Assembly: GCA_031409335.1 (NCBI GenBank)
Contig: JANNWY010000033.1
Span: forward strand, 8,509-72,508
Direction: 5' to 3'
DNA: 64,000 nucleotides
From: Chthoniobacteraceae bacterium
GTDB taxonomy: Bacteria > Verrucomicrobiota > Verrucomicrobiia > Chthoniobacterales > Chthoniobacteraceae
Part shown: positions 13,306-38,866 of the stretch, one piece after another
How the letters are laid out: each line of letters starts with the position of its first letter
Numbering within the stretch: position 1 is the first letter of the stretch
Made by a program: the position numbers and the translations under genes
Notes under the pieces: model-generated
What the model was told of the DNA's origin: nothing
The model's input: only the letters and a program-made list of their open reading frames with translations
The model's database searches: none

Positions 13306-13323
13306 CTGTAACAGGATTGTAAC
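13306..13323 (+). promoter_or_regulatory. Pho-box-like site upstream of tpsB
   Basis: CTGTAAC-agga-TTGTAAC, 11-bp period. Confidence 0.7.
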
Positions 13324-13391
13324 AAGCGGCGGCTGGATAGAGTCGTTGGCCAACTTATACAAGCTGCCACCGCTACCAACCCACCATTGGC

Positions 13392-15083
13392 GTGCCCTAC
13401 ATTTTTTCACCTCGCATTCCATTCAATCGACTCGCCTTCGCGTGTGGCAGTGTAGTCGTGGCGTGGCTGGGATATTCTGGCATGGTTTTCGGTGCGGAGA
13501 CACGTTCCGCAGTCGCGACGCTAGGCGACAGCGAGAATGCGGCGACCACGGAAGCTCCCCAACGGCCCATATACATCCGGGAATATCGGGTCACTGGGGC
13601 GCATCGGCTGCCTGCAATTGAAGTTCAAGAGGCCGTGTATCCCTATCTCGGGCCGGGCCGGACGGAGCGGGATGTCGAGCAGGCGCGCGCCGCATTGGAG
13701 AAAGTGTATTTCGACAAGGGCTTCCAAACCGTAAGCGTGGAGGTTCCACTCCAGCAGGCGAGTCGGGGCATTGTCATTTTGCAGGTGGTCGAGGCGAAAG
13801 TCGGGCGGCTTCGCGTGCGTGGCTCGCGCTACTTTTCCCTCGCTGCGATCAAGCGGCAGGCACCGTCCGTCGCGGAGGGAAGCGTGCCGAACTTCAATGA
13901 CATCACGCGCGATATTGTGGCTCTCAACAAGTTCTCAGACCGGCGGGTCACGCCGACGCTGCGCCCCGGAGTGGAGCCTCGTACAGTGGACATCGATTTG
14001 AATGTAAAGGATACCTTCCCGCTGCACGGCAGTATCGAGCTAAACAACCGCTACTCGGCGAACACGCCCCAGCTCCGGCTCAGCGGCTCGGTTTCCTACA
14101 CGAACCTCTGGCAGTTGGGCCACACTGCCGGTGCCAGCTTCCAGGTTTCGCCGGAAGACTTGGCGAAGGTGAAAGTCTTCACCGCCTACTATCTCGCACA
14201 AGTCCCCGGCGTCGATTGGCTGAGCCTGCTCGTGCAGGGTGTGAAGCAGGATAGCGATGTCTCGACGCTCGGTGGCGCGGCAGTCACGGGCCGCGGCGAG
14301 ACGATCGGCGGACGGGCGATCATCGCGCTGCCGGGACGCGAAGGGTTTTACCAATCGCTGACGGCAGGCGTGGATTACAAGCGCTACGATCAGAATGTCA
14401 TCGTCGGGACAACCACCGACCGCACGCCGATTTACTACTACCCATTCACCCTGAACTATAGCGGAACGTGGGTTGGAAAAAAAAGTCTCACGGAACTGAA
14501 CGCCGGCGTGACGATGGGTCTGCGCGGCATGGGTAGCCGCCAAAGCAGTTTTGATCGCAGTCGCTTTCGCGCTGACGGGAACTACTTTTTCTTTCGCGGC
14601 GACCTCGCGCGCACGCAGGATTTGCCGCGAGGTTTCGTGGTCTATGGAAAAGTGCAGGGCCAGGCATCGGGCGGGCCGCTGGTCAGCAACGAACAGTTTG
14701 CCGGCGGCGGCCTCGGCACTGCGCGCGGCTATCTCGAAGCCGAGGCGGTCGGTGACAATGGCATATTCGGCACGCTCGAACTCCGCAGCCCATCCTTCCT
14801 CGCCACGACCCGCAAAGTCGGCGAGGGCGATTCCGCGAGCGAGAAGCCTACCGGCAACGAATGGCGCTTCTACGCCTTCTGCGACGCGGGTACGCTCACC
14901 CTGCACGATCCGCTGCCACAGCAGGAATCCAGTTTCCATCTGGCGAGCGTCGGCATCGGCAGCCGCATCCAGCTTTTCGATCACTTCAACGGTTCGGTCG
15001 ATCTCGCGATGCCCTTTACAAGCCTCACGGACACTGGCTTGCGGGACACCCGCGTCTCCTTCCGAGTCTGGGCCGATTTTTGA
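13392..15083 (+). CDS. ShlB/FhaC/HecB-family two-partner secretion transporter (TpsB)
   Basis: POTRA region (AARAALEKVY..GF.TV.V), beta-barrel with ARGY.E motif and terminal Phe. Start may be slightly downstream. Confidence 0.92.
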   Translation: MPYIFSPRIPFNRLAFACGSVVVAWLGYSGMVFGAETRSAVATLGDSENAATTEAPQRPIYIREYRVTGAHRLPAIEVQEAVYPYLGPGRTERDVEQARAALEKVYFDKGFQTVSVEVPLQQASRGIVILQVVEAKVGRLRVRGSRYFSLAAIKRQAPSVAEGSVPNFNDITRDIVALNKFSDRRVTPTLRPGVEPRTVDIDLNVKDTFPLHGSIELNNRYSANTPQLRLSGSVSYTNLWQLGHTAGASFQVSPEDLAKVKVFTAYYLAQVPGVDWLSLLVQGVKQDSDVSTLGGAAVTGRGETIGGRAIIALPGREGFYQSLTAGVDYKRYDQNVIVGTTTDRTPIYYYPFTLNYSGTWVGKKSLTELNAGVTMGLRGMGSRQSSFDRSRFRADGNYFFFRGDLARTQDLPRGFVVYGKVQGQASGGPLVSNEQFAGGGLGTARGYLEAEAVGDNGIFGTLELRSPSFLATTRKVGEGDSASEKPTGNEWRFYAFCDAGTLTLHDPLPQQESSFHLASVGIGSRIQLFDHFNGSVDLAMPFTSLTDTGLRDTRVSFRVWADF

Positions 15084-15270
15084 TCTGCGTTCTGATCGGC
15101 AGTCGATTGCAATCCTTGGTCCCCAGGCGTGGCGAACTCACCGCTTCCTGATACGCCGTCACCGGCGCAAGCAGCACTTCGCCAACCAACGCGAGAATCG
15201 GTTTGGCGCTGTGCGCGTGGGTTGGATTCATGCGGACGGCCGCATTACTGAAGTGGTGTTTGATTCGCAA

Positions 15271-15299
15271 TCGTCACACAAGCGACATGCGTTTGTCAC
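15271..15299 (+). promoter_or_regulatory. Pho-box-like triple repeat upstream of the exbB fusion
   Basis: TCGTCAC-acaa-GCGACAT-gcgt-TTGTCAC, 11-bp period. Confidence 0.6.
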
Positions 15300-15325
15300 A
15301 ATGCCGCGTTTTGTTTGTGGAAAGA

Positions 15326-17194
15326 ATGTTATCGTTTTCCCGCCCTCTCTTCCCATTGCGCGCCTGTTTGTCGCTTGCCGTGCTGTTTGCCCTCTGCCTC
15401 TGTGCCAATGCGAAGGACAAATGGTGGGACGATGCATGGACTGCGCGCAAGAGCGTCACTGTCGATACGACCCAAACCGGCGCGAACATTAGCGAACCGA
15501 TCGGCGGCGCGACGGTGCTCATCCGACTTTACGATGCCAACTACCCTGGGACGGCGAAGGACGATCTCAGTGATCTGCGCTTTGTCGCGGAGGACAACAA
15601 GACGCTGCTATCCTTCCATGTGGAGAAAATTGACTCTCTCCTTGGCGAAGCATTTGTCTGGGTGAAACTGCCCGATGTGAAGCCGAATGCGAAGACGGCG
15701 TTCTGGATGTACTACGGATCAAACGACGCCAAGGCCATCAAGGTCGAGGATCCGAAAGCCTGCTACGACGCCGACACCGTGCTCGTGTTTCATTTCAGCG
15801 AAAGCGGACAGCCCGCGGGGGACTCCACGAAAAACGGCAACGGCGCCGAGGCGACCGCCGGCAAGGCCGATGGGGCGCAGATCGGCGGCGGCACTGCTTT
15901 CAACGGTGCCAGCCCGGTGCCAATCACCGCGTCGCCCTCGCTACTGTGGACCGAGGGCAATGCGGCGACGATGAGCGCTTGGGTAAAGATCAGCGCGGCG
16001 CAGCCGGATGCGGTGATCCTCAGTCGGCGCGAGGATGAAAAATCCTTCGTGCTTGGCGTGAACAATGGAACGCCGTTTATCGAAATCGGCAGCAAGCGCG
16101 GTCTGTCCGCGCAGCCGCTGACGCCCGGTTCGTGGGCGCATCTGGCCGTCGTCTGCGAGGGTGCGAAGACGACGCTCTATGTGAATGGCGAGCAGTCAGC
16201 CGCGCTCGGCGCAGGCCTGCCGGGAATGAACAAGCAGTTCACGCTCGGCGGGGATACGAAAGCAGGCGCGACTGGCTTTGCGGGTGAACTAGACGAATTC
16301 CAAATCCACAAGAGCGCGCGTCCGCCAGGCTTCGTCCAGCTCGCCGCGTTTGGCCAGGGTGGCGACAAGGTCGCGAAGGTGATCGTGATGGGTGAGCATG
16401 AGCAGCCGACGAACTGGATGAGCTGGCTGACGACGGGTCACTTTGGCGTCATCATTAAGAACCTCACCTTTGACGGATGGGTAGTCATCGTGATTCTCGC
16501 GGTCATGGCGGTGCTCAGTTGGTATGTGATGGTCAGCAAGACTCGCTATCTCAACGGGCTGACAGCGGGAAATGAAGTGTTCATGGAGCAGTGGCGGTTC
16601 GTCGCCGCGGACCTGACGGTGCTGGACGATGATGACGTGGAAAAATCGAGGACACTTGGCGGGCGGGTAACGACAGAGAATCAAAAGAAGATGCGCCGCT
16701 CATCGGTCTATCGCATCTACCATATTGGGGTGGAGGAGATCCGCCATCGTATCAGCGAGGACCGGGCGCAGGGGATCCGGCGCGGGCTGGCGGGCAGGTC
16801 GATCCAGGCGATCCGCGCGGCGCTCGATGGCGGTCTCGTGCGCGAGACGCAGAAGATCAACAAGCTCATCGTGCTACTCACGATTTGCATCTCCGGCGGA
16901 CCGTTCCTCGGGCTGCTGGGCACCGTGATCGGAGTGATGATTACCTTCGCTGCGGTCGCCGCCGCGGGCGAAGTGAATGTGAACGCCATCGCGCCAGGCA
17001 TCGCGGCGGCGCTGCTTGCGACGGTCGCTGGACTCGCGGTCGCAATCCCCGCGCTATTTGGCTATAACTATATCCTTTCCCGCGTGAAGGACGCGAAGGA
17101 CGACATGCACATCTTCATCGACGAGTTCGTGACGAAGATGGCCGAGTTTTACAAGGAGAAGGGCAACGAGCGAGACGGCGGCAGCGGACACTGA
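15326..17194 (+). CDS. DUF2341-LamG-MotA/TolQ/ExbB fusion protein
   Basis: WWD.AW..RK and DLRF...WVK...MYYG (DUF2341); WAHLAVV...LYVNG...GELDEF (LamG); GPFLGLLGTVIGVM...APGIAAALLATVAGL.VAIPA (ExbB). Confidence 0.92.
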   Translation: MLSFSRPLFPLRACLSLAVLFALCLCANAKDKWWDDAWTARKSVTVDTTQTGANISEPIGGATVLIRLYDANYPGTAKDDLSDLRFVAEDNKTLLSFHVEKIDSLLGEAFVWVKLPDVKPNAKTAFWMYYGSNDAKAIKVEDPKACYDADTVLVFHFSESGQPAGDSTKNGNGAEATAGKADGAQIGGGTAFNGASPVPITASPSLLWTEGNAATMSAWVKISAAQPDAVILSRREDEKSFVLGVNNGTPFIEIGSKRGLSAQPLTPGSWAHLAVVCEGAKTTLYVNGEQSAALGAGLPGMNKQFTLGGDTKAGATGFAGELDEFQIHKSARPPGFVQLAAFGQGGDKVAKVIVMGEHEQPTNWMSWLTTGHFGVIIKNLTFDGWVVIVILAVMAVLSWYVMVSKTRYLNGLTAGNEVFMEQWRFVAADLTVLDDDDVEKSRTLGGRVTTENQKKMRRSSVYRIYHIGVEEIRHRISEDRAQGIRRGLAGRSIQAIRAALDGGLVRETQKINKLIVLLTICISGGPFLGLLGTVIGVMITFAAVAAAGEVNVNAIAPGIAAALLATVAGLAVAIPALFGYNYILSRVKDAKDDMHIFIDEFVTKMAEFYKEKGNERDGGSGH

Positions 17195-17204
17195 GGAAAA
17201 GGCC

Positions 17205-17606
17205 ATGCAAATCCAGGATGACAAGCCTTACGATGACATCAACATCACGCCGATGCTCGATCTCGCGTACGTGCTGCTGGTCATCTTCATCCTCATGTGT
17301 ACCGCGGCGGTGCAGGGATTGAAAGCCGACCTGCCGCAAGGCAGCAAAGGCACCAAGAGCCTCGCCGAGCGGAAAGTCCGGGCGATCACCGTCAATACCG
17401 AGGGTAAAGTTTTCCTCGACACGTCGCCAGTCACACTCAGCGAACTCGAAGCGCGGCTGGCGCAGATCAAGGCGGAAAACCCGAACGTGCCGATCGTCGT
17501 GAAGGGTGATCGCGTGGCGCAATATCAGGGCATCATGGATGTGCTCAACGTCGTCGGGCAGTGCGGCATTACCCAAGTCGGCCTGGCCACCAAAGCCGCG
17601 AAATAG
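17205..17606 (+). CDS. exbD: Biopolymer transport protein ExbD (copy 1)
   Basis: INITPMLDLAYVLLVIFIL; KGD...Y..IMDVL. Confidence 0.92.
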   Translation: MQIQDDKPYDDINITPMLDLAYVLLVIFILMCTAAVQGLKADLPQGSKGTKSLAERKVRAITVNTEGKVFLDTSPVTLSELEARLAQIKAENPNVPIVVKGDRVAQYQGIMDVLNVVGQCGITQVGLATKAAK

Positions 17607-17623
17607 CTGTCAGCCAACCCGCC

Positions 17624-18031
17624 ATGCAAATCCAGGACGACAAACCATACGATGAGATCAACATCACGCCGATGCTCGATCTAGCCTATGTGTTGCTGGT
17701 CATCTTCATCCTGATGACGACGGCGACGGTGCAAGGGATCAAGGCCAATCTGCCGCGCGGCAGCAACGCGCCGAAGAAGCAGACCGACAAGAACAAGGTG
17801 AAGGCCATCGCCGTGGACAATGCGGGCAAGATCTATCTTGACCGCGAGGAAGTGACTCTTGCCATCCTCGAAGCGCGGCTGACACAGGCCAAGGCGGATA
17901 ACCCGGATGTTCCAGTCATCATCAAGGGTGACAGTGGGACGCAGTATCAAAGCGTGACAGATGTGCTGGGTGTCGTCGTCAAAATCGGCATCACCCAAGT
18001 CGGCCTCGCAACGAAGGCGGCTGGCAGATAA
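17624..18031 (+). CDS. exbD: Biopolymer transport protein ExbD (copy 2)
   Basis: Same motifs; N-terminus almost identical to copy 1. Confidence 0.92.
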   Translation: MQIQDDKPYDEINITPMLDLAYVLLVIFILMTTATVQGIKANLPRGSNAPKKQTDKNKVKAIAVDNAGKIYLDREEVTLAILEARLTQAKADNPDVPVIIKGDSGTQYQSVTDVLGVVVKIGITQVGLATKAAGR

Positions 18032-18049
18032 CTCGACAAGCCTATTCCC

Positions 18050-18802
18050 ATGAACCCGAACCCTGACGATAAAGGCGGATTTACCACGATCGAAACGAAC
18101 GTTTCACCGAATCGAAAAACCGCGCCCGCGCATCCTCCCGCGCATTCGGATTGGGGGGACGACGACGTAAAAGTGACGGGATTCAAGAAATGGCGGATGC
18201 CAGTCTTTGTGGGATTGCTCACGCTCACTGGCATCGGCTACGCCGTCAAAACGCTCTCGAAAGCGGACGGGAGCGGGGTGAGGAAAGAGAATGTGACAAT
18301 GGTACAGATTCAACTTCCGCCACCACCACCGCCACCTCCGCCACCGCCGCCTCAGACGATGAAAGAGGAAGAGATGATCAAGCAGGAGGAAGACAAGGAA
18401 GAAGAGCCCGACACAGCACCTGTGATCGACACGGCCTTGAAAGGACCGGCAAGTGGCGGTCTGCAAATCGCCCAGCAAAAGCGGGGCAATTTTTTCGGTA
18501 AGCGCCCCGAGAGCAGCAAGACGAAGTGGGGCTGGTACGCAGCCCAGGTGCAGACAACCATTGCGGATATTCTCAAGCGGAATCCCCGCACGAAGATGGC
18601 CGAAGTGCGGATCGAAGTCCGGATTTGGGCCGATTCTTCGACTGGCCGTGTGATTCGGGCCACCCTCGGTAGTTCGACGGGTGACCCGGGGATGGATGCC
18701 GCCATCGTCGAGGCACTCAAAGGTGCGCAACTCGCGCAGCCACCGCCGGAGGGAATGCCGATGCCGATCGTGATGCGGGTGACGGCGCGCAAGCAAAAAT
18801 AG
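18050..18802 (+). CDS. TonB/TolA-like energy transducer
   Basis: Single TM segment, poly-Pro linker, C-terminal domain with SSTGDPGMDAAI. Confidence 0.85.
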   Translation: MNPNPDDKGGFTTIETNVSPNRKTAPAHPPAHSDWGDDDVKVTGFKKWRMPVFVGLLTLTGIGYAVKTLSKADGSGVRKENVTMVQIQLPPPPPPPPPPPPQTMKEEEMIKQEEDKEEEPDTAPVIDTALKGPASGGLQIAQQKRGNFFGKRPESSKTKWGWYAAQVQTTIADILKRNPRTKMAEVRIEVRIWADSSTGRVIRATLGSSTGDPGMDAAIVEALKGAQLAQPPPEGMPMPIVMRVTARKQK

Positions 18803-18845
18803 TTTCCCTGATCATTCCCAGAAAACCGGGCGCATTGTTTCACCG

Positions 18846-18874
18846 TTGTCACCGACGCGTCACTTAGTTGTCAC
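18846..18874 (+). promoter_or_regulatory. Pho-box-like triple repeat upstream of the porin gene
   Basis: TTGTCAC-cgac-GCGTCAC-ttag-TTGTCAC, 11-bp period. Confidence 0.75.
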
Positions 18875-18883
18875 AATTCTGCT

Positions 18884-20878: not shown

Positions 20879-20880
20879 TC

Positions 20881-21558: not shown

Positions 21559-21583
21559 GCGTCAACTGTCCAGGCCTGCGCTT

Positions 21584-30500: not shown

Positions 30501-33500
30501 TCGACGTTGCCGCGGGCCGCGATGTGCAACTGCGCAACCAGTTCGCAACGATCTACACGGCGGGCGTGCGGCTTCCGTATGCGAATACGATCATCGGGGA
30601 AAACGAGGTGCGGCTGATGAGCCTCTTTTCGGCGAACGACTTCGCGGTGCCGCTGGTGGAGCAAAGCACTTCGCACGTTTCGCAAGGTTCGATCCTTGGA
30701 CAGTTCCAGCAGGCATACGCAGCGCAATATGGCATGGCTGGCGGAGACGTGACGCTCTTTGCGCAACAGGACATCGGTCGGTTCACACTGTTTAATGGCG
30801 AGATCCGCGCAGACTCCTCGCGCCAGCTTCCAAACAACTGGCTGTATCGCCGGGGCTTTGTGGATCCGGCGACGGGCACGTTTGGCGCGGGTGGCATCGG
30901 GGTCTCGTCGGATCTGTCGGCTTCGACGACGTGGTGGGTCGATTTCAGTAATTTCTTCCAAGGCTTCGGGGCGTTGAGCGGCGGCAATGTTGCCATGTTT
31001 GCCGGGCGCGACCTCATCAATGCGGATGCGGTGGCGGCGACAAACGCGCGGATGGCAGGGCGCGATGGAGCGACTGGCAGCTTGCTCGCGCCGGATGCCA
31101 GCAAGCTGTTGGAACTCGGTGGCGGCGACGTGAGGGTGGGCGCGGGAAAGAATATCGACGGCGGCGTCTATTATGTGGAGCGCGGCGTGGGTAGCTTGGT
31201 CGCGGGGGGTGAGATTACGACCAACAGCGCCCGCTCGCCCTCGCTTGGATTCCTGGGGCAGTCGTTCAGCAATATCGAAGTTGTCCAGAGCGGCTCGCCG
31301 TCGGTTTTCGATCCGCTAACCTGGCTGCCGACGACGCTCTTCGTCGGTAAGTCCCGCTTCGATGTCAGTGCTGCTGGCGACGTGCTACTCGGGCCGGTGA
31401 CGAATCCGTTCTTTCTGCCGCAAGGCGGCAACAACAAGTTCTGGAATAAGACTTACTTTAATACCTATTCGGACAATGCTGGCGTTTCGGTGGCCTCCTT
31501 TGGTGGGAGCGTGACGCATCGGATGGCGGTGACGCTACCCGGTAGCGGCAGTGCCACGGCAACGTTGCAAGCATGGATCTCCCAGCAGAACGTTTTGACT
31601 TCGGAGAACGCTTCGTTCTACGAACCGTGGATTCGCCTGGCTGAGGGAAACACCAGTAACTTCAGCACGATCGCCACCGTGGGCGCGCCATCGCTTCAGA
31701 GCACGGCCTTTGCGGGAAATATCAATCTCGTCGGCGATCTCAACCTTTTCCCGTCCTCGAAAGGTGGGCTCGAACTGATCGCAGCGGAGGGCGTTATCGG
31801 ATTGCAACCCTCGGGTAGAACCTACGCGCAAGTCGGTGCCAGCCGCCTGCCGGTCACAGCGTGGATTAGCGCCTCGGTCAATGTCTCGGATGCCGATCCG
31901 GCTGGCCTGCCGGGGATCGCATCCCCTCTCGCGTATCGCGCGCTGGCGGGGAGTTCAGAGAATGCGCTCCGGGACAATATCGTCAATCCGTTTGCTGGCA
32001 TCGACCCATCCTTCCTGGAGACGGGCTCTTTCACCGGATTCGCGGCAAGTGCGGAGTCGCAGCGGGCGCTGCACGCGACCAGCCCGTTGCATGCGGGCGA
32101 TCGCGCGCCCGTCCGGCTTTATGCGCTGGATGGGGACATCACGGCCATCACGCTCTTTGCGCCGAAGGCGAGCCAAATCGCGGCGTCGAACGACATCACG
32201 GACATCGCGTTTTATCTCCAGAATACGCAATCGGAGAGTATCTCGTTTGTTGCCGCCGGGCGCGACATTGTCGGATTCAACGAGAACAGCAGGCTGCGAT
32301 CGGTCGCCCGCGATCTCGCCCAGGGAAACACCGTGGTTCCTTCGGTGCTCTCCAAGTCTCCGCTCACCGTGGTGGGGACGAGGAGTGCTTCACTGGCGGG
32401 TGACATCCAGATCAATGGACTGGGCGTGCTGGAAGTGCTGGCGGGTGGAGATCTCGATCTCGGGACTGGCGCTAACCTAAGGGATGGCACGGGCACCGGC
32501 TTCACCAGTATTGGCAATTCCCGGAACCCATTTCTGCCATTCGGCGGGGCGGACATCATTGTCATGGCCGGTGTGCCTGGGCCGGGAGGTGAAGGACCAG
32601 CTCTGGGTCTCCGCGATAGCTCCCTTGATTTTGAAGCATTCATTACTTCATCGAAAATCGCGGACAGTAAGTTGGATTCCGCCTATCTGGATAAACTCGA
32701 GTTCACGGGAGCATTCCAGTCGCTTACAAACGAGCAGCAGGCGATCGTTGCCTTGGAAGTGTTCTATCGCAAATTGCGCGATGCCGGACGCGGTTCCGCC
32801 ACCACCGGCAACTACGATCCTGGATTTGCGGCGGTTGACACCCTGTTTGGGCAGGCGCAGAACGCAGGCGAAATCTTCACCCGCACGCGCGACATCCGCA
32901 CGAGCGTCGGCGGGGCGATTTCGATCGCTGCACCAGGCGGCGGGTTCACCATGGCTTCCGACATTTTTGGCAATCCGCTGACGCCGCCTGGCATTGTCAG
33001 CGAGTTCGGCGGAACGCTTTCCATTTTCACGGATGAAAGCGTGAATATCGGTCAGGCTCGCATCTTCACGCTGCGCGGAGGCGACATCGTCATCTGGTCA
33101 TCCAAAGGCGACATCGCGGCAGGCAGCGCTCCGAAGACCGTCGTGACGGCGCCGCCCACGCGGGTGCTCGTCGATTCAAACAGTGCGGATGTGCAGACGG
33201 ACTTGGGCGGCCTGGCGACTGGCGGCGGCATCGGCGTCCTGGCTTCAGTGGAGGGCATCATGCCTGGCAACGTGGACCTTATCGCGCCCGGAGGCTTTGT
33301 GGATGCGGGCGACGCTGGCATCCGCGCCACGGGGAATCTGAGCATCGCCGCAGTGGCAGTGCTCAACGCGTCGAACATTTCCGTTTCTGGAAGCTCAAGC
33401 GGCGTGCCGAGCGCACCCACCGTCGCGGCCCCGAACATCGGCGGATTGACCGCAGCCTCAAACACCGCCGCGGCCAGCACCAGCTCCGCTCAGGATCTTG

Positions 33501-33595
33501 CGAAAAAGCAGGTTCCCGCGGCACCGGTCAAAGAAGAAGACCCATCAATCATCACCGTCGAAGTGATCGGCTATGGTGGAGGCGAAGGCTCTTAG
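21584..33595 (+). CDS. Giant filamentous haemagglutinin-family TpsA with C-terminal DUF3739 (~4000 aa)
   Basis: TPS domain (LSWQTFNIG, PSQILG, VINQNGIIFG), beta-helical repeats, and C-terminal GGDIVIWSS.GDI.AG...DAGDAGIR. Start moved from 21473 to avoid overlap. Confidence 0.92.
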   Translation: MKLRRLTRSGGPMRDGPALRNHRASTTTAIGVAAALAASLMAEAGDILRGGAPAATRQGNAGFGNNPAPTAQARANAKDVLSRTTEAVQAVKGMQAAARNAAIQGPNNLGLNPNKPGVQLPNVPNGLTTGGLQVGNTKLWRGATLPTQSVANVRTKVAIKQTKPQALLSWQTFNIGKETTLSFDQSAGGDNQGQWIAFNKVNDPSGVPSQILGSIEGLGQVYVINQNGIIFGGSSQINLHTLVASSLLINDGLIARGLLNNPDAHFLFSNLPIASGKNGTPAFNPVVTDPAFSVDPLNPTRTVSQVVASDGKTPAAPIQFRVSVTRPGTGAATLSPTADYTLATNAAGKSVVTFTPDGLVKVAGGSVKISYTPAAIKSGDVTVQKGAILASPVNDAGNGGRVMLVGPNVENAGTILTPAGQTILAAGLQVGVAAHASNDPSLRGLDVWVGAVGSDTGKATNRGLIDAPTGSISMVGRFVNQLGAAESATSVSLNGRIDLRASYGAVGNPNFTDSTLPFVFQKTGVVTFGEGSVTRILPDYLSERTVPGTTLPESSQINVDGLAIHFSRNSMMLAPSGNIRLSAGLWPYRDVNGDRTTLGSDGLVESGLSTHLAGGEQRFLFDSGQIYLDSSSFINVAGTTDVNVPLSQSLLDVEFRGSEFADAPLQRDRLLRGAGLTVDIRRTGTFDGRFWMGTSLGDVTGLAGLIQRNAAQLTAAGGSVNVQAGGSIVIRDGAAIDVSGGFFQHEGGMVRTTRLLQGGRLIDIADARPDQLYDGTFTGISTFEHPKYGITETFTIPWMRNERFEEGFVEGASGGTLALTAPGMALDGALLGLTVAGPRQRTDRAPHSQLTLAFEAERLYGPALPQVDTIRYSPTPPTVRLTPGATQTAPGAFVLNGDAPAALAAGRLKLVTLSPDLFTGQGFGHLSIANPDGTVVVPEGVSVAAPAKGSLSLSGSNITIRGAVSAAGGDLKFRVFNLSPSFVDEFRRLRNLTPQADPRPNRDRGFFTLAETGRLEASGLIADDRVNIPSALARPLVLAGGSISIEAFSTQLMVGSTIDVSGGAGISTRGRVTYGNGGSISILTGRDLSLTSVTGGRFGPGAVLSGYSGATGGSLSLRAMLIQIGGRAQFANTLVLEPALFQQGGFTAYSLTGIGRDSTTKPETGAPETYAPAISVAPGTVVRPIAENWMAVPNPPGSGETVLRPFTNQVGVRSPVSMSFAALGSDDSFSTDILEARGDIVLRAGSLIETDPGGGITLGGDTVSIMGSLTAPGGTIAIRGRAVFPLAPLVEGSTLSALPTVSIGPKARISTAGTTVLLPDAFGRRTGTVSRGGVITVFGNIVAESEATLDVSGSFASFDLSPSALGHVGSPIVPANSGVTAPLWTLGSETTRIDSAGGLIEIEGSQLLLSDATLLGSAGGPTATGGTLSVHSGRFYPRSGGNIAVSVRSTDINLVITQRGNVIPDTGITGIGRPVLSESGAPIRGFGRFAIERFSRGGFDSLELGAKFLETSTFPVGGNLQFRGPVAIEARGYLRLAAGGVLQADSSVGLRASYISIGQPFRAPINPNDPVAVFQQSPAGGGVQDLAFAPTFGSGSLKLQAGLVDIGNLSLQKIGRAVVDSSGDIRGNGTVAIRGDLTLRAAQLYPTSLSTFNLFAYDPELGSGSIVIRGGGASAVPLSVGANLNVFASSIIQDGVLRAPVGSITLGWDGKTDFDPIDSDIDGPTDPISKNVLPVAVADRVTLGAQSFTSVSATNSTLGTAVLLPYGLSPDGFSWIDPRGVNVTTGGVPEKRVVIAGESVTTRRGAVVDIGGGGDLYAYRWVPGTGGNIDRLGTASSAWSASTPYQSGDLVLFNGQTWSARVASLDKRPTIGLSWSRVGESFAVIPDFAAPFAPYNPFNSGGNATSLQGDPGYIFTANPVGDRVRTSLLSVGRVNAGMRIGDRIYLDSTPGMDAGFYTLLPRRYALMPGAFLVTPLDGSPLGSFALPDGANLASGYRLDAFSQTGEIPALRSRFEIASSAVTLARSKFENYLGNTFFSDAAKRLEIERPQQTPIDGGYLSYHGNSAIFLLGDVRAASAHGGRGAMVDVSSFADLYIIGGRGAAPAGARAVVEVERLNSWGVESLLIGGLRQRTATGTIVDVRTNGLTLNNAGITLGAPEVVLASRSALTVGAGSALVSTGALSQPADLLLPGNDGALVRVSGDLNAASNRTGLPATSTPLLTIGAGARIGGRSATLDSTAGSLFDPSAVLNARALTLGSGQISILLDQPSAGLTGSLVEQHLTISGKLLQDVQQANSLTLRSYRTIDTYGSGTFGSPALDTLTLFAAGVRGYDQGPGTATFEVGNLVLGNPSNVVPIEAPAVVSGSLRVAANTIRLGANNFAAGGYENVEFNAAGGVLGRSAGAFTTPGNLTINTPLITGVRGATQAVTAGGALVLNRTDGAVAVRGGLGSSFTFTGTTVLADTNIQLPSGEIVLRAMTGDVVVGGQLNVAGTRQEFYDLTRYSNAGRILITSDQGDVKLAAGSLLSVASAGFGKAGSISINAASGEFLNEGKLNLLGQASSDANSGTFLLDVLSAGTYANVNDPLQAGGFFNERNIRIRTGSVTIDGITRARDFSLSADEGAITVTGTIDASGRTGGQIILVSGSSLTLESNARLTVQAGEFNSAGKGGSIRLEAGAAIDGTANEFALLDIKDNATINLGVDSYVAGAYTDAKASAFRGRFQGTLHLRAPRVGNDIGVGPIGGDVSGASSILVEGFRVYDRTLEGTLDNALRDTIHFEAQSYMDDGYDTMLAKLVGANASLSPLLVLAPGVEIISRTGDLVLGTDVDDYTNDWDLSGFRYGPKQAPGVLTIRAVGNVEFKNALSDGFRGDFSPNDFGEFPPPGQELWLRPLMDISATLPVNTQSWSYRLVAGSDLSAADFRRLKPLDTLADGKGSVLVGKFYAPNLVSGTEATTAAAIDNRFQVIRTGAGNIDVAAGRDVQLRNQFATIYTAGVRLPYANTIIGENEVRLMSLFSANDFAVPLVEQSTSHVSQGSILGQFQQAYAAQYGMAGGDVTLFAQQDIGRFTLFNGEIRADSSRQLPNNWLYRRGFVDPATGTFGAGGIGVSSDLSASTTWWVDFSNFFQGFGALSGGNVAMFAGRDLINADAVAATNARMAGRDGATGSLLAPDASKLLELGGGDVRVGAGKNIDGGVYYVERGVGSLVAGGEITTNSARSPSLGFLGQSFSNIEVVQSGSPSVFDPLTWLPTTLFVGKSRFDVSAAGDVLLGPVTNPFFLPQGGNNKFWNKTYFNTYSDNAGVSVASFGGSVTHRMAVTLPGSGSATATLQAWISQQNVLTSENASFYEPWIRLAEGNTSNFSTIATVGAPSLQSTAFAGNINLVGDLNLFPSSKGGLELIAAEGVIGLQPSGRTYAQVGASRLPVTAWISASVNVSDADPAGLPGIASPLAYRALAGSSENALRDNIVNPFAGIDPSFLETGSFTGFAASAESQRALHATSPLHAGDRAPVRLYALDGDITAITLFAPKASQIAASNDITDIAFYLQNTQSESISFVAAGRDIVGFNENSRLRSVARDLAQGNTVVPSVLSKSPLTVVGTRSASLAGDIQINGLGVLEVLAGGDLDLGTGANLRDGTGTGFTSIGNSRNPFLPFGGADIIVMAGVPGPGGEGPALGLRDSSLDFEAFITSSKIADSKLDSAYLDKLEFTGAFQSLTNEQQAIVALEVFYRKLRDAGRGSATTGNYDPGFAAVDTLFGQAQNAGEIFTRTRDIRTSVGGAISIAAPGGGFTMASDIFGNPLTPPGIVSEFGGTLSIFTDESVNIGQARIFTLRGGDIVIWSSKGDIAAGSAPKTVVTAPPTRVLVDSNSADVQTDLGGLATGGGIGVLASVEGIMPGNVDLIAPGGFVDAGDAGIRATGNLSIAAVAVLNASNISVSGSSSGVPSAPTVAAPNIGGLTAASNTAAASTSSAQDLAKKQVPAAPVKEEDPSIITVEVIGYGGGEGS

Positions 33596-33610
33596 CGAAA
33601 TCCACATGCA

Positions 33611-34627
33611 ATGATACTATCCGATCCATCCAGATGGCTTCACAGTTCGTGCTTACGCACGTCGCAGTATGATTTCCCGTCTTTGAGGTTCCGAGTTTCA
33701 CATCGAAAGGACATCAGGAACATCACCGTCAACTGGCCAAGGGCTAGCAGCCTCATCTTCGCGAGCCTGCTGGTCCTCTGCACTTCCGCGCTGCATGCCC
33801 GGTCGGTGGACGAGGCAAAAAGGCTGCAAGAACTCACAACGGCGGCGGACGTGGGTGACGCCGAGGCTGAATACAGCCTTGCCCGCTTCCTTCTGACTTC
33901 CGAGGGCGATGCTGACGACAAGACCAAGGCGCTCGACTTGATGCGCAAGGCTGCCGGGAAAGGCCACGCCGATGCCATCGGAGGAGTCGGTTACTTTTAC
34001 TCCGTTGGCGTCGGAGTCGCATTGGACGAAGCGCAGGCAGTCGAGTGGTTTCGCAAGGGTGCCGACAAGGGCTCCGCCAAGGCGCAACTGAATTTGGGGT
34101 TGATGATCGCGAATGGAAAAGGAGTGCCGAAAGATGAGGCGGAGGGTCTGCGTCTCATCGACATCGCAGCCAACAAGGGCCAGCGGGACGCGCTCTATTC
34201 CCAAGCCGAGACTTACTTTTACGGGCAGTTCGGGCGGGGGATGGACTATGGGAAAGCGCGTGCCGGTTTTCAGAAAGCCGCCGAAGCGGGACACGCGGGC
34301 GCGCAGAATAATCTGGGTGCCATCTTGCGGGACGGGCTGGGGGCTGAAAAGGATGAGTCGGCAGCCATCGGTTGGTTCCGAAGGGCGGCGGAGCAGGGGT
34401 TTGCCAAGGCGCAGAGCAACCTTGGGCATCTTCTCGGCGTCAATGTCGAGGATCGCGCACGAAGGCTGGAGGCATTGAAATGGACAATGCTCGCATCCGA
34501 CCGGGGCGAGATCACTGCGGTGAAAACAATCGAGGAACTAACGCCTAACGCGCGTCCTGAAGATTTAATCGAGGCCCGAAAAATGGCTCGCCTGTTTCAA
34601 GCGAAACGCGAGGGCGACGGGCGGTAG
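33611..34627 (+). CDS. SEL1-like repeat protein
   Basis: Repeated A..WFRKAA..G...AQ.NLG....G.G. Start uncertain. Confidence 0.9.
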   Translation: MILSDPSRWLHSSCLRTSQYDFPSLRFRVSHRKDIRNITVNWPRASSLIFASLLVLCTSALHARSVDEAKRLQELTTAADVGDAEAEYSLARFLLTSEGDADDKTKALDLMRKAAGKGHADAIGGVGYFYSVGVGVALDEAQAVEWFRKGADKGSAKAQLNLGLMIANGKGVPKDEAEGLRLIDIAANKGQRDALYSQAETYFYGQFGRGMDYGKARAGFQKAAEAGHAGAQNNLGAILRDGLGAEKDESAAIGWFRRAAEQGFAKAQSNLGHLLGVNVEDRARRLEALKWTMLASDRGEITAVKTIEELTPNARPEDLIEARKMARLFQAKREGDGR

Positions 34628-34635
34628 GAGTCGCC

Positions 34636-35274
34636 TTACTGTGCTGTTTCGCTCGCGTCTTCCGGGGACGAAGGCTGGTCCAGCGCGTTGATCGCAGTTT
34701 CCATGCTCTTCTGCAGGTAGGCCGAATCTCCGAAAACGATCCGATAAATCGAGTCCGCCTGTTCCTGCTCGGCAGTCCAGACTTGCGCGAGATCCTCGTC
34801 GGCGAGGGTCGCCGCGGCGTCGTTGATGCGGGCGACGAACTGATCCGAGATTTCTTGCAAAGCACTGGCTTGCGCTGGCGACAGTGCGTCGTCCGATGCG
34901 GCAAAGGCGACAGGCGCGCGGACACCGGCGCTTAGTTCGAGCACGAGGTCTGGAGTGGAGGTGGCACTCGCGCGCCGGGCTGCGGGGGGTTGCGGTTGTG
35001 TGAAAACGGTAATGCGGCGCAGGCGCGGATGGGTGGGTTCGGGCAGGCTGTCCGTCTCTTCGGCGAATGCGGATACCTGCTCGCTGACCTCCAGGTTTTC
35101 TCCGGGAGTGGTCGCTGCCATTTCAGCGGAGATGCTGGGTGGGAGCGAGGTCGCGTGGTGATCGGTCGAGGTCGATGTGGCTGCGCTCGCGGAATGATCG
35201 GAGCGACCGAGATCTGAGAATGTTAGGATTGCCAACACCAAAACGGCGACTGCACAGAGGACTAGTTTATTCAT
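34636..35274 (-). CDS. Hypothetical exported or membrane-anchored protein
   Basis: N-terminal hydrophobic segment, low-complexity linker, helical C-domain. Confidence 0.6.
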   Translation of the reverse strand: MNKLVLCAVAVLVLAILTFSDLGRSDHSASAATSTSTDHHATSLPPSISAEMAATTPGENLEVSEQVSAFAEETDSLPEPTHPRLRRITVFTQPQPPAARRASATSTPDLVLELSAGVRAPVAFAASDDALSPAQASALQEISDQFVARINDAAATLADEDLAQVWTAEQEQADSIYRIVFGDSAYLQKSMETAINALDQPSSPEDASETAQ

Positions 35275-35322
35275 CGGTTCAATTTGGAGTTGCATTCTTA
35301 TCCGAGTGTTGGCGGTGGGGCT

Positions 35323-35361
35323 AAAATGGAAACTGGCGCCGGGGATGAACCCGGCGCCAGT
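35323..35361 (-). terminator. Stem-loop/terminator after the PstS-like gene
   Basis: ACTGGCGCCGGG/CCCGGCGCCAGT 12-bp stem followed by TTTCCATTTT on the minus strand. Confidence 0.7.
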
Positions 35362-35416
35362 CCCGAACGGTCAACCCATGCCTGATGGCGCGTGGCAGGC
35401 CGGTAATAGCATTCGA

Positions 35417-36799
35417 TTAGGGGACGGTGACGGTCGAGCCGTCGTTGCCGCGCGTTGCGACCATCGCCGTAAGGGCGACACCGGAATTCGCGAGGCCGCC
35501 TGGAATGCTGGCGACGATTCCGCCAGCACCATAGACGATCGTGTTCTGATCGGTCGAGAGTGTGCCGCGGTTGAAGAGGCGCTCGTAGCTCCAAACGGTG
35601 TATTGACCGTTGGTCACCTTAAAGCGATCGGCAGGCAGGAGGCCCGTCGGATCAACTGTCGTGGAGACCGGCGTGATTTTCACGCCGTTGTAGCTCAGGA
35701 CATCGCCGCCGCCGGCGATGACACCGACGCCGTCGTTGGTTCCGACAAACCCGATAACGGATATCGCTCGTGGGTTTCCGACGGAGGTTCCAACGTAGCT
35801 GCCGGTGCTGCCGAGGTCCGTTCCTGTTGGTCCGAGCACTCGAACGGAGCTGGTATCAAGCTGCAGCAGGATTGAGACGTTGCCGCCGCTGAAGTAGCCG
35901 CCATTGCCAGTCGTCAGCGGATTCCACAGAACCGAATTGTTGTTCGCGTCCTGTGCATCATTCGAAGGCCAGAGTTGGAGGAAGTTGGCGACATCTAAGG
36001 TCGATCCGGCAGAGGTGACACCGTTGAAACCATTGGCACCCAGCTTGAACTGGTTGATAAGTGTGGAGACACCGACAGCGGGTTCGATCATGTAAACTGC
36101 GCGGGTTCCGGAACCGTCATTGCGGCCCGTAGCCAACACGCGACCAGTGGTGTCCGCAGCGAGGCCGGTGAAGGTGCTGAGCGGCACGCCACGGTTATTT
36201 GCCAGAACGGCTCTCCAGCTTTGTCCCGTGACGTTTGTGAGGTTCACGGAAGAACCCTGGCTTTTGCAGAACACGAAGGTGACGACACCCACGCGGGAAT
36301 CCGCTGGTGAAAGGACAGGAGTTCTGAAGGGGCTGCTGGTCTGCTGCACGTCCGAGAAGGCGAGGTCGGGCTTCTGCGCCACGTTCGCACCCACCGGGTT
36401 CGAGTTTTGGTTCAGGTTCACGAAGTTGGCCGCGCCGGCGCTTGCCGGGATGCTGGCATCGGGATAATAGAACACGTCATTCGGCGTGCCGGGAATCGTG
36501 GTGCCCACGAGATCGCGGATGCCTTCAGTGGAACCCGAGAAGCGGCAGCGGATGATGGTGTCGCCGACCGTGGTGAAGTTCCCACGGAAGGAGATCGCGT
36601 TCGCTCCGATGTAGTTGGTGTTGCTGGAGTTTGAGTGAACGATGCGCACTGCGCCCACCCCGCCGTAAGCGGCGACGATGGAATTGATCGTGGCAGTACG
36701 GAACGCGGTGGCTCCCGTGATGTTGATGACCGTCTGCGCTTGCGCGGAGGCGGCAATGAGAGTCGCAAAAGCGGCTCCGAGGATGAGTTTGGATTTCAT
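35417..36799 (-). CDS. Secreted PstS/DING-like phosphate-binding-fold protein
   Basis: Signal peptide; ITGATAF, GSTEG, AFSDV, GRNDGSGTR and GQYTVWSYE motifs in PstS order. Confidence 0.7.
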   Translation of the reverse strand: MKSKLILGAAFATLIAASAQAQTVINITGATAFRTATINSIVAAYGGVGAVRIVHSNSSNTNYIGANAISFRGNFTTVGDTIIRCRFSGSTEGIRDLVGTTIPGTPNDVFYYPDASIPASAGAANFVNLNQNSNPVGANVAQKPDLAFSDVQQTSSPFRTPVLSPADSRVGVVTFVFCKSQGSSVNLTNVTGQSWRAVLANNRGVPLSTFTGLAADTTGRVLATGRNDGSGTRAVYMIEPAVGVSTLINQFKLGANGFNGVTSAGSTLDVANFLQLWPSNDAQDANNNSVLWNPLTTGNGGYFSGGNVSILLQLDTSSVRVLGPTGTDLGSTGSYVGTSVGNPRAISVIGFVGTNDGVGVIAGGGDVLSYNGVKITPVSTTVDPTGLLPADRFKVTNGQYTVWSYERLFNRGTLSTDQNTIVYGAGGIVASIPGGLANSGVALTAMVATRGNDGSTVTVP

Positions 36800-36859
36800 T
36801 GTGAACTGATTTTTTAGTTTGCGGGTAGGTGACTTACTTGTTGATGCCGAGGGATATGA

Positions 36860-37714
36860 TTAAGCAACGCGGCGGCGGCGGGAGGCGAGGCCAGCGAGGC
36901 CCACGCCGATGAGGAGAGCGGTGGAGGGCTCGGGAACCACGAGGGAGATGGAACCGGCGTTGTCGATCACGACGGTGCCTTCAAACGTTCCAACTGCCGT
37001 GGGTTCGCCGAAGCCAAACTGCCCGGGAATGTTGTTGAACCCCTGGATCCGATAGAGATCCACGGCTGCTTCAGCATTGACTCCGCCAAGGACGCCAAAA
37101 ATGCCATTGCCGAAAGGCACCTGGACACCCGAGGCAAACTCATTGAAGGCCAGGCCATTGGCTGGATTCTGATCGTTCCAATCGACAAAGTTCGCGTCCC
37201 TCGCGATCAGCGCGAAGTTGGAACTTGCGAGAGTCTCGAAGGAATTGACGCTGCCGAAGATGCCATTGGCCGCGGATTGCACGCCGCCGTTTGGATTCAA
37301 CGTGTAGCCGCCGGACGCTGCCACACCTGCCGAACCGACCGACTGCCGGGGAGCGCTCGCATAGACCGTGAGATCCGGGTCGCCGTTGACGAAGAAGCCG
37401 TTGAACTCGTCGTTGCTGCCGACCGTGGCAGCGCCGAAAAAGAGGTCCGTGCGATTAAACCAGTTCGTTCCAAACTGTGTGGTCAGGACAGCGCCAACAT
37501 CGATGATGTTGAGGAGGCTGCCCGCAGCGTCGCGCAGAACTCCGGCGTTACCGAGGTTTGCGAGGACAAATCTGTCACTGCCTGCGCCGGTGGCTTGGAT
37601 GCCGACAATCAGGTCGCCAAACTCGTAACCGGGATTTTGAGCTAGTGCGGATGCGGAGAGAATCCCTCCCACGAGCGCACTCGCGAGGGCTGGGAATTTC
37701 GTTGTTTTATTCAT
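36860..37714 (-). CDS. PEP-CTERM surface protein
   Basis: Signal peptide; VPEPSTALLIGVGLAGLASRRRR. Confidence 0.9.
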   Translation of the reverse strand: MNKTTKFPALASALVGGILSASALAQNPGYEFGDLIVGIQATGAGSDRFVLANLGNAGVLRDAAGSLLNIIDVGAVLTTQFGTNWFNRTDLFFGAATVGSNDEFNGFFVNGDPDLTVYASAPRQSVGSAGVAASGGYTLNPNGGVQSAANGIFGSVNSFETLASSNFALIARDANFVDWNDQNPANGLAFNEFASGVQVPFGNGIFGVLGGVNAEAAVDLYRIQGFNNIPGQFGFGEPTAVGTFEGTVVIDNAGSISLVVPEPSTALLIGVGLAGLASRRRRVA

Positions 37715-37854
37715 TTTTGATGTGTCTTATTGGTGGAGTATTTTCTGTGCTTGCGATTTACTTTGGTTCGACTGAATTGGGCCAACGCTCAGGGGGGATT
37801 TGGATCCCGGTTCGCTGACTTGTTTGAAACCTCCATCACGCTCACGGCGGCTTG

Positions 37855-37883
37855 ATGACTTTAATGTCACGTTTTTGTGACGA
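37855..37883 (-). promoter_or_regulatory. Pho-box-like triple repeat upstream of the PEP-CTERM/PstS-like operon
   Basis: Minus strand TCGTCAC-aaaa-ACGTGAC-atta-AAGTCAT, 11-bp period. Confidence 0.55.
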
Positions 37884-38054
37884 ATCTCGATTTGGTCACC
37901 ACGGTGGGGCACCGGCGATGTTGCCACGTTCGTGCGGGCCGTTTTTTGCGAAGCGCGACGCCCAGATCTTTCGCAGCCGCGCACGCGAGCGATAGCCCGC
38001 CGGGGCATGGCTGCCTTTCTTACCAAAGTCATAGGGCGTGGGTGATTCGCGTGA

Positions 38055-38094
38055 ATGTCATCACATTGTCACTCTGGCGACACGATTCCGACAC
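38055..38094 (+). promoter_or_regulatory. Pho-box-like quadruple repeat upstream of the response regulator
   Basis: ATGTCAT-caca-TTGTCAC-tctg-GCGACAC-gatt-CCGACAC, 11-bp period. Confidence 0.75.
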
Positions 38095-38162
38095 AAGGGC
38101 GTGTTTCATTTATCCCTAAGCCTGCCGGATTCTCCGGGAGGTGCTGCCAATCGTTCTGAACC

Positions 38163-38855
38163 GTGCCTATTCCTACCAATGCCAGCATCCTTGTCGCCGA
38201 TGATGAAGCGGATGTGCGAAATTTGATTGGCATCAACCTTGCCAGTGCGGGCTTTCACGTGATCAAGGCAGAGGACGGCGAAAGCGCCTTGAGTAAGGCG
38301 CGGGGTCAGTCGCCAGCCTTGATGGTATTGGACGTGATGATGCCGGACATGTCTGGAATCGAGGTGTGCAAGCTGCTCAAGAGCGATCCCTCAACGTCGG
38401 CCATTTCAATCGTGCTGCTGACGGCGAAAGCCGAGGAAGTGGATCGCATTCTCGGACTGGAACTGGGTGCCGATGACTACGTGACGAAGCCATTCAGTCC
38501 ACGGGAACTCGTGTTGCGGGTGCAATCCATCCTCCGGCGCAAGGAAGTGGGAACCGCCCAGCCTGGATATATGAAGATCGGCGAGATCGCGATTGATCGC
38601 GACCGGCATTTGATCACGGTGTGTGGAAAGCCCGTGGCTCTGACAGTCATCGAATACAAGCTACTCGCAGTCCTCGGTGCGAAGCCAGGACATGTCCATT
38701 CGCGCAATGAGCTGCTCTATCGCGTGTGGGGCTATGACAAGTCGATCGAAACCCGGACGGTGGACACCCATGTGCGGCGGCTGCGTGAAAAGCTCGGCGC
38801 ATCTGCCGATCAGATTCAGACGGTGCGCGGCTTTGGCTACCGCATCGAAGAGTAG
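38163..38855 (+). CDS. OmpR/PhoB-family response regulator (PhoB/PhoP-like)
   Basis: Receiver (DD, LDVMMP, LTAK.EE.DR..GLELGADDY.TKPFS); wHTH TRTVDTHVRRLREKL...TVRGFGY. Confidence 0.93.
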   Translation: MPIPTNASILVADDEADVRNLIGINLASAGFHVIKAEDGESALSKARGQSPALMVLDVMMPDMSGIEVCKLLKSDPSTSAISIVLLTAKAEEVDRILGLELGADDYVTKPFSPRELVLRVQSILRRKEVGTAQPGYMKIGEIAIDRDRHLITVCGKPVALTVIEYKLLAVLGAKPGHVHSRNELLYRVWGYDKSIETRTVDTHVRRLREKLGASADQIQTVRGFGYRIEE

Positions 38856-38866
38856 GTCGGATCGAC

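Follow-up and report, generated by a model that had tools for sequence, protein, structure and literature searches.

A probable Pho-regulated gene cluster combining two-partner secretion, a TonB-type motor, a porin and a PstS-fold protein in a Chthoniobacteraceae genome

We describe a 25.5-kb gene cluster (positions 13306-38855) in a 64,000-nucleotide stretch of DNA, hereafter the window, taken from a Chthoniobacteraceae bacterium of freshwater sediment (assembly GCA_031409335.1, contig JANNWY010000033.1, positions 8,509 to 72,508). The cluster very likely encodes a Pho-regulated, obligate machine with a phosphate-binding partner, built from a two-partner secretion (TPS) pair with a giant exoprotein, a dedicated ExbB/ExbD/TonB-type motor and a porin, and encoded opposite a PstS-fold protein. 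Our more specific reading, in which the motor assists phosphate capture through the porin and the porin is fed by an exported binding protein (the binder), is tentative, and we give it a probability of roughly 0.4.

Open reading frame (ORF) lists and family scans of the window confirmed the gene inventory, order and strands of the original prediction, which had been made from the sequence alone. A plus-strand operon begins downstream of a terminator-like hairpin and runs tpsB, DUF2341-LamG-exbB, exbD, exbD, tonB-like, Porin_5, coiled-coil, giant tpsA and SEL1. A minus-strand operon (PEP-CTERM, 460-aa PstS-fold protein and 219-aa hypothetical) faces it across an 8-base gap, and its promoter region is common to a divergent response regulator. 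The plus-strand features are as follows, with counterparts from the Pseudomonas aeruginosa PAO1 cluster:

13187-13211 (+), intrinsic terminator-like hairpin of the upstream gene (10-bp stem, T tail), the left boundary
13392-15083 (+), TpsB, Omp85-family TPS transporter with POTRA_2 (PF08479) and ShlB (PF03865), PdtB counterpart
15203-17194 (+), DUF2341-LamG-ExbB/TolQ motor subunit with a large periplasmic N-terminal part; the true start is probably somewhat downstream
17205-17606 (+), ExbD/TolR copy 1, from the family scan
17561-18031 (+), ExbD/TolR copy 2, likely start 17624, 66.9% identical to copy 1
18050-18802 (+), TonB/TolA-like transducer with transmembrane (TM) anchor, Pro-rich linker and TonB_2 C-domain, TonB4 counterpart
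18884-20878 (+), Porin_5 porin (E 3e-200), PA0696 counterpart
20881-21558 (+), coiled-coil protein with signal peptide, in the PA0697 position, no significant family match
21473-33595 (+), giant TpsA with N-terminal TIGR01901 and C-terminal DUF3739, likely start 21584, ~4003 aa, no Cys, PdtA counterpart
33611-34627 (+), SEL1-repeat protein, a conserved accessory that adjoins the cargo module in many loci

The TPS pair has the features of type Vb secretion, namely a TpsB with POTRA and ShlB barrel domains and a TpsA with an N-terminal TPS-type domain (TIGR01901, 60 bits against a cut-off of 29.1). Three genome samples were surveyed for the system (251 genomes across the phylum, 121 closer relatives and 331 Pseudomonadota genomes), in which kin are not independent and many assemblies are fragmented. 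Core gene order is kept in 43 related loci, alphaproteobacteria included, with tpsB directly before exbB in nearly all of them, the coiled-coil gene after the porin in verrucomicrobial loci, and the tonB-porin adjacency retained across two phyla. Porin and DUF3739 TpsA match the same 13 of the 331 Pseudomonadota genomes. All four loci without an adjacent tpsA carry one elsewhere, and where the motor is not adjacent a DUF2341-ExbB is found elsewhere in the same genome or plasmid. Judged by gene content, these surveys show TpsA, TpsB, the DUF2341 motor and the porin to be obligately linked. The minus-strand cargo operon comprises:

34636-35295 (-), conserved hypothetical of 219 aa with N-terminal hydrophobic anchor, Pro/Ser linker and helical C-domain
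35417-36799 (-), enlarged PstS-fold protein of 460 aa with Sec-type signal peptide, no lipobox and near-invariant phosphate-site motifs
36860-37714 (-), PEP-CTERM protein, first gene of the operon, from family scans

The 460-aa protein had no match in Pfam, NCBIfam or a single-sequence phmmer search against the PDB. A profile of 117 rows (the query and 116 of 120 listed homologues) matched two PstS structures (E 4e-6 and 2e-4), and the AlphaFold2 (AF2) model had a predicted local distance difference test (pLDDT) score of 93.5; with this model Foldseek returned 26 matches at E<=0.001, all of them phosphate-binding proteins among the matches listed. The motifs GATAF, GS, D150 and RNDGSGTR, which we take to correspond to the phosphate ligands of E. 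coli PstS, are kept in 112-117 of 117 rows at most positions. The protein is predicted to have a PstS/periplasmic binding protein (PBP) fold with phosphate-site motifs, and to bind phosphate. Its mature form begins QTVINITG and it has two Cys, with no Cys invariant in the 117 rows. DING proteins are described as having a DINGGG N-terminus and four conserved Cys (PMC7922408), and a DING identity was rejected because neither is present; the original label 'PstS-like/DING-like' thus holds in its first half only. No pstCAB permease genes were found beside it in the cluster, and the genome's ordinary PBP_like_2 genes lie on four other contigs (C66, C113, C205 and C242).

The PstS-like profile and the core porin were each found in 8 of the 251 genomes across the phylum, and these were the same 8; in seven the two genes share a contig at a distance of ~7-17 kb, and in the eighth one PstS-like copy abuts tpsB-exbB at a contig end. 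The 121 relatives divided into 61 with both, 48 with neither, two with the binder alone and 10 with the porin alone, the pair lying within 30 kb in 38 of the 61 and on different contigs in 23. The binder therefore appears near-obligately linked to the core in Verrucomicrobiota, a result shown by gene content. A PEP-CTERM homologue occurs in 21 of the 121 relatives, all binder-positive, and lies within 3 kb of the binder in 20; it is directly upstream of the binder in 19 of 20 cargo loci selected for PEP-CTERM matches or a nearby regulator. The window's PEP-CTERM protein has the C-terminal PEP motif, TM helix and basic tail, and four exosortases are encoded elsewhere in the genome. Two other cargo modules (L062, positions 6760-8628, and L063) hold an exosortase gene between two PEP-CTERM gene copies, which suggests dedicated processing. 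Homologues of the 219-aa hypothetical sit downstream of the PstS-like gene; the protein has no Pfam or NCBIfam family, and its best Atlas score (0.84) was to unnamed clusters. PstS-like, PEP-CTERM and regulator genes thus recur with the core in the genomes surveyed, as the original prediction needed.

Regulation by phosphate is suggested by PHO-like repeats and by a duplicate of PhoB:

13307-13323 (+), PHO-box-like tandem repeat with 11-bp period, upstream of tpsB
18847-18874 (+), triple PHO-like repeat immediately ahead of the porin gene, not conserved among relatives
37865-37882 (-), PHO-like repeat with one mismatch, upstream of the PEP-CTERM/PstS-like operon
38056-38072 (+), perfect PHO-box-like repeat, upstream of the regulator
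38163-38855 (+), regulator, an orphan PhoB paralog (OmpR/PhoB family) with phospho-Asp motif and intact RTVDxHxRRLR recognition helix

The search used tandem copies of [TC]GT[CA]A[CT], which we take as the PHO consensus, at an 11-base period, with an AT-rich spacer defining the strict set (a description of the box is given in PMC4971064). Four repeat matches fall at three sites inside the cluster (binomial P ~6e-5), and the left edge originally placed at 13306 coincides with the first of these repeats. Of only eight strict sites in the 7.9-Mb genome, three lie in the cluster, one before pstS (C113) and one before phoB (C202). A further strict site is a perfect box at C24:4523, directly before a large secreted protein (1423 aa), whose gene is another candidate for the Pho regulon. 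In the locus test, which left out 13 alphaproteobacterial loci, 13 of 25 verrucomicrobial tpsB genes have a PHO-like site upstream, where shuffled sequences would give 0.45. The regulator has one in 8 of 19 loci and the PEP-CTERM gene in 5 of 16, some of these being shared divergent promoters; before tpsA they occur in 5 of 23, none perfect, and the internal controls gave 1 of 27 (exbB) and 0 of 35 (coiled-coil). An ORF at 37727-38032 (-) overlies the promoter region, has no family match and is probably spurious. A second strain (run X5) carries many substitutions in the intergenic segment 37989-38158; in an incomplete list of these, a single change (38056 T>C) falls within the PHO-like box, and it still fits the consensus.

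The regulator is 62.7% identical to the phoR-linked PhoB on C202, and PhoB TIGR02154 is its best model (247.7 bits against a cut-off of 296.2, which the phoR-linked copy also misses at 259.7). A PhoR-like neighbour was found at none of 18 cluster regulator loci, compared with 21 of 21 other PhoB copies. Of 73 system-positive genomes, 30 have a PhoB-like gene no more than 13 kb from the porin or binder, and 37 have at least two PhoB-like copies, as against 4 of 48 system-negative genomes. In a 39-row tree, for which one cluster locus gave no full-length row, the window regulator belongs to a 13-member clade of cluster regulators (100/98) and five others fall elsewhere. A single origin was rejected (p-AU 0.005), and this scatter indicates that kinase-less PhoB duplicates have been recruited more than once. 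Phosphorylation of the orphan PhoB by a distant PhoR is what we infer for the window. The phosphate-starvation theme of the original prediction is thereby strengthened by the PHO-like boxes, the PstS fold and the PhoB paralog, and also by phosphate genes adjoining related loci (phoU, pstS, phnD, choice-of-anchor-I, PBP_like_2 proteins and PhoD). Such neighbours include a choice-of-anchor-I protein in L010 (1-3669), a TonB-dependent receptor with PhoD in L086 (4008-8320), and a phosphonate-type ABC transporter with pstS beside a related core in L050 (692-3026).

The porin was modelled as a 16-strand barrel with no plug and an N-terminal helical stalk (44 rows, pLDDT 79). Its nearest solved fold is OmpM1 (Z 26.0, root-mean-square deviation 2.7, 299 aligned), followed by OprB (Z 21.2), OprP (21.1), OprO (20.8) and general porins (~19), all compared over residues 114-570 only; a PDB profile search returned OmpW alone (E 0.07). 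Alternating arginines on the first two strands (R130, R132 and the R177-R185 ladder) are kept in 82-100% of the 44 rows, and the stalk carries a conserved short D-x-[VL]-R-V-T-Y-[IV]-P segment, which resembles a TonB box. A prediction of the TonB-like C-domain in complex with the stalk scored 0.06 against a mark of 0.32, with controls not folded, and weighs neither for nor against a contact. TonB-dependent transporters are described as 22-strand barrels with a plug domain (PMC2729926), and with 16 strands and a helical N-terminus the porin is not one of them. A distant Porin_5 paralog of the same genome (L002, 8292-9911, on C149; 27%) lies without motor genes, divergent from an OmpR-type regulator.

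Motor residues are well conserved: the TM Asp motif, which has a role in ExbB-ExbD-TonB/TolQRA motors as do the ExbB channel Thr residues, is present in 46 of 47 ExbD-like ORFs, and the Thr motifs are kept in 37-38 of 39 ExbB homologues. Two exbD copies occur in just 7 of 40 loci, and the duplication is lineage-limited by this count of sequences.

We propose that under low phosphate a PhoR encoded elsewhere would phosphorylate both the canonical and the orphan PhoB, switching on both operons. TpsB would export the giant TpsA, which would form a long filament at the cell surface. The PstS-fold protein would leave by another route, probably a type II secretion system (T2SS), and would bind phosphate while held at the surface by its exosortase-processed PEP-CTERM partner, the filament or both. 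The dedicated motor may then grip the periplasmic stalk of the porin, with the D-x-V-R-V-T-Y segment as the candidate contact, and either open the arginine-lined channel or strip the bound phosphate, which would be handed on to ordinary periplasmic Pst systems. Such a device would be analogous to HxuABC of Haemophilus influenzae, with a plug-less porin replacing the TonB-dependent transporter. We infer the export route and surface location of the binder, the target of the motor and the transported species. A wider claim, that this is a widespread and unrecognised class of active outer-membrane transport, in which a motor pulls the stalk of a plug-less porin to import phosphate from a PstS-fold protein displayed with filament and PEP-CTERM protein while lineages swap regulators (VreAIR in proteobacteria, repeatedly recruited orphan PhoB duplicates in Verrucomicrobiota), is in our judgement unlikely, if not very much so.

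Several observations weigh against motor-assisted capture. The contacts of motor with porin and of binder with porin are a proposal. The binder is less obligate than TpsA, which coincides fully with the porin in Pseudomonadota: a PstS-like match is missing from 10 of 71 porin-positive relatives (several fragmented), and the stretches read around 4 of 10 proteobacterial loci contain no binder-like gene. Taken alone, the arginine ladder does not mark phosphate specificity; OprB and general porins score near OprP. On the motor side, the S-x3-H motif expected in a TonB/TolA anchor occurs in none of 29 TM segments (one of them VreA-like), and the best NCBIfam matches of ExbB and ExbD, below cut-off, are TolQ and TolR. 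On the regulatory side, 12 of 25 tpsB upstream regions have no PHO-like site, the repeat before the porin recurs in 0 of 32 related regions, and the genome-wide count at the 11-bp period (25) lies within that of other spacings (13-66), so that the period is not enriched. In 2 of 10 proteobacterial loci the stretch also includes a TonB-dependent receptor, once beside PhoD. Finally, work on P. aeruginosa describes LapA and LapB, encoded at its locus, as phosphatases (PMC7035377, PMC9769906), so that the cargo may be catalytic instead of a pure binder.

The best-surviving alternative, which we hold to be improbable yet worth serious weight, is energised fibre biogenesis: motor, stalk, coiled-coil protein and, elsewhere, a peptidyl-prolyl isomerase (PPIase) would form a trans-envelope accessory powering export, anchoring, release or retraction of TpsA via TpsB, with the PstS-fold protein a co-regulated passenger. 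It would account for the complete coincidence of porin and TpsA, for the tpsA and DUF2341-ExbB genes found elsewhere when not adjacent, for the position of tpsB before exbB, and for the PpiC chaperone that is part of many copies of the system. Against this, PMC5422565 describes TPS secretion as independent of an energy source, and the arginine-lined pore and the tracking of the core by the PstS-fold protein (8 of 8, 61 of 73) are left unexplained.

A Tol-like envelope or adhesion role has a small chance of being right. A TolQRA-like motor acting on an OmpM-like stalked porin would act as a tether for the outer membrane or remodel it, and under phosphate starvation the filament would serve in surface attachment; the TolQ and TolR matches, a weak TolA match, the TonB_2 domain with weak TolA structure matches, and the tether porin OmpM1 as nearest fold all point this way. 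All Tol matches are nevertheless below cut-off, TolB and Pal are absent from the cluster, the OmpM1 match covers the barrel (114-570) and not the stalk, and a tether gives a phosphate-site protein no role. Somewhat less probable again is that the motor is a phosphate-starvation TonB system for ordinary receptors encoded elsewhere, the porin being a passive, co-regulated phosphate channel. The genome has seven matches to the TonB-dependent-receptor barrel (PF00593), receptors lie in the two proteobacterial stretches noted above, and in L035 the end of a receptor-like ORF precedes a VreA-like gene. Yet further ExbB/ExbD/TonB sets exist for the genome's ordinary receptors (C148, C214 and C325), the tonB-porin adjacency spans two phyla, and the DUF2341-LamG extension is peculiar to the cluster motor. 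None of the seven barrel matches is on the window's contig, in agreement with the original statement that the window holds no plug-and-barrel receptor.

Binder-like genes lie near 6 of the 10 proteobacterial loci (L086-L105), identified in two by PBP_like_2 scores above the cut-off, in one by a score under it, in one by motif alone and in two by BLAST likeness alone, and T2SS genes lie beside four of these six. The remaining four, which lack a binder-like gene, are also the ones flanked by VreA/VreI/VreR-like genes, and this hints at two sub-types. Trans-envelope signalling, in which filament, porin and motor would relay a surface or ligand signal to VreA/VreR/VreI in proteobacteria or to the orphan PhoB, is very unlikely: vre-like genes adjoin many proteobacterial copies, the binder-less four among them, and VreA is described as lacking a barrel and responding to an inducing signal not known in those sources (PMC4971064, PMC7035377), but the cluster and the 18 verrucomicrobial regulator loci examined have neither vre-like genes nor a kinase, and VreA is reported to be dispensable for regulon expression in low phosphate (PMC4971064).

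Other parts of the original prediction fared less well. 'Self-contained' is overstated: the cluster has its own PhoB-like regulator, but kinase, exosortase and T2SS/secretins are encoded elsewhere in the genome, which has seven secretin matches. The genome (7.9 Mb, 98% complete) holds every core gene in single copy, and its closest related loci, some of them labelled Chthoniobacteraceae, mark it as verrucomicrobial. 'Island' is not borne out, as GC content is 60.2% against 62.0% for the genome (10th percentile among 185 windows) and neither a tRNA nor a sign of mobility was found at the cluster; recent horizontal acquisition is not supported. A second sequencing run from the same study yields contigs that cover 30 of 30 bins of 20000-39500 with almost no differences, no piece spanning the stretch. 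'PVC-type' is too strong because a plasmid of Aquabacterium olei, a betaproteobacterium, has the same layout, with PEP-CTERM gene and a core with two exbD. The 426-aa protein encoded next to that PEP-CTERM gene has no Pfam or PDB match, and because its alignment to the PstS-like profile is weak (hhalign E 0.012, probability 3.5%) we did not score it as a binder. Porin matches on 15 plasmid or secondary-replicon records, from Klebsiella, Methylosinus and Aquabacterium among others, indicate that mobility of the system is possible in proteobacteria. Export of the binder through the porin is unlikely, since a folded protein of 45 kDa would hardly fit through a 16-strand barrel with large loops, and a T2SS exports the counterparts in Pseudomonas.

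The present study contributes the genome-level co-occurrence, a PHO-box test with controls, and the finding that orphan PhoB duplicates were recruited repeatedly. The verrucomicrobial version, with neither sigma system nor neighbouring T2SS, reveals the constant parts as TpsA, TpsB, DUF2341 motor and porin, the binder nearly so, and its phosphate-fold binder is invisible to Pfam. If a TonB-type motor works on a plug-less porin or a TPS transporter, the known range of such motors widens. Given its presence in 73 of 121 sampled relatives, the system may be a main phosphate-scavenging route of these abundant freshwater and soil bacteria.

Elsewhere in the window, a complete Amuc_1098-1102 pilus-like operon (51268-58337, -; secretin, Amuc_1099, Amuc_1100, PilM-like and Amuc_1102, all over NCBIfam cut-offs) lies upstream of coaE and rho, with no relation to the cluster as far as seen; it includes the sole secretin of the window (51268-53889). 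Proteins of 999 and 934 aa and a 141-aa ORF, without Pfam or NCBIfam match, adjoin a GYF/DUF4190 membrane protein (39403-45653, -). Further PEP-CTERM proteins are encoded at 4811-5941 (-, HAF repeats) and 61061-63988 (-, PA14/PATR), a 1546-aa Calx-beta repeat protein at 20-4660 (+), and a 706-aa ORF without family match at 6762-8882 (+), in a lower-GC area rich in short ORFs.

The closest described relative is the PUMA3 regulon of P. aeruginosa PAO1, given as lapA/lapB, pdtA (PA0690) and phdA-pdtB-exbB2-exbD2-tonB4-PA0696-PA0701 (PMC7035377, PMC4971064, PMC2729926). There PhoB is reported to bind pho boxes at pdtA and phdA, with pdtA and phdA-PA0701 dependent on PhoB and low phosphate (PMC4971064), and PA0696 and PdtA are listed among the most enriched low-phosphate proteins (~6-fold on that paper's scale), LapA/B being Hxc-secreted (PMC9769906). 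The same literature calls exbB2-exbD2-tonB4 'still uncharacterized' and PA0696 a putative porin of unknown function (PMC7035377), and reports the neighbourhood as conserved in other proteobacteria, with single mutants as virulent as wild type in zebrafish (PMC2729926). In phosphate-depleted P. fluorescens SBW25, the DING-family Psp is described as secreted with an FhaB-like giant (PMC5082522). Among the papers listed by our literature searches, mostly without subscription papers, none dealt with the mechanism or with the system in Verrucomicrobiota, and PMC12382080 proved to be about something else.

HxuABC is described as coupling TPS to a TonB-dependent transporter (PMC5422565), and the window cluster likewise couples TpsA and TpsB to what would be an energised outer-membrane nutrient importer; HxuC, however, is a plug-and-barrel heme transporter, whereas the window has a 16-strand porin without a plug, together with a motor of its own and a binder that is a distinct protein. 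The 460-aa protein shares with PstS and DING proteins (LapA, Psp) the two-lobed PBP fold and phosphate-site motifs, and differs in its size (~440 residues mature), its 8-13% structural-alignment identity, the lack of a Pfam match and of a DINGGG start, its two Cys and the absence of adjoining ABC permease genes. The porin resembles OmpM1 (Veillonella), OprP and OprO in its 16-strand barrel and periplasmic N-terminal extension, with an arginine ladder as in OprP, but has longer loops, a SHOCT-like helical stalk with a conserved strand-like segment, 12-20% identity and a fixed position after the TonB-like gene.

With the P. aeruginosa cluster, as the original prediction had proposed, the window shares the order tpsB, exbB, exbD, tonB-like, porin and helical hypothetical (PAO1 order as given in PMC7035377), and, compared by description, the giant TpsA, a neighbouring PBP-fold protein and pho boxes. 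Two proteobacterial loci laid out as gspDEF, two PBP genes and tpsA, then tpsB-exbB-porin, encode proteins 36-38% identical to those of the window, and the porin of a Methylosinus locus with vreAIR, PPIase and YbjN is 44.7% identical. Unlike P. aeruginosa, the window cluster has no VreAIR, adjacent Hxc T2SS, PhdA, YbjN or PPIase among the ORFs scanned (the absence of VreI and Hxc agreeing with the original prediction), its tpsA lies downstream in the same operon, its exbD is doubled, its cargo belongs to a PstS-fold family other than DING and is transcribed together with a PEP-CTERM gene, and an orphan PhoB duplicate serves as the control. Having neither VreAIR nor Hxc, it is not PUMA3 proper; it is a variant of the known, unexplained P. 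aeruginosa cluster.

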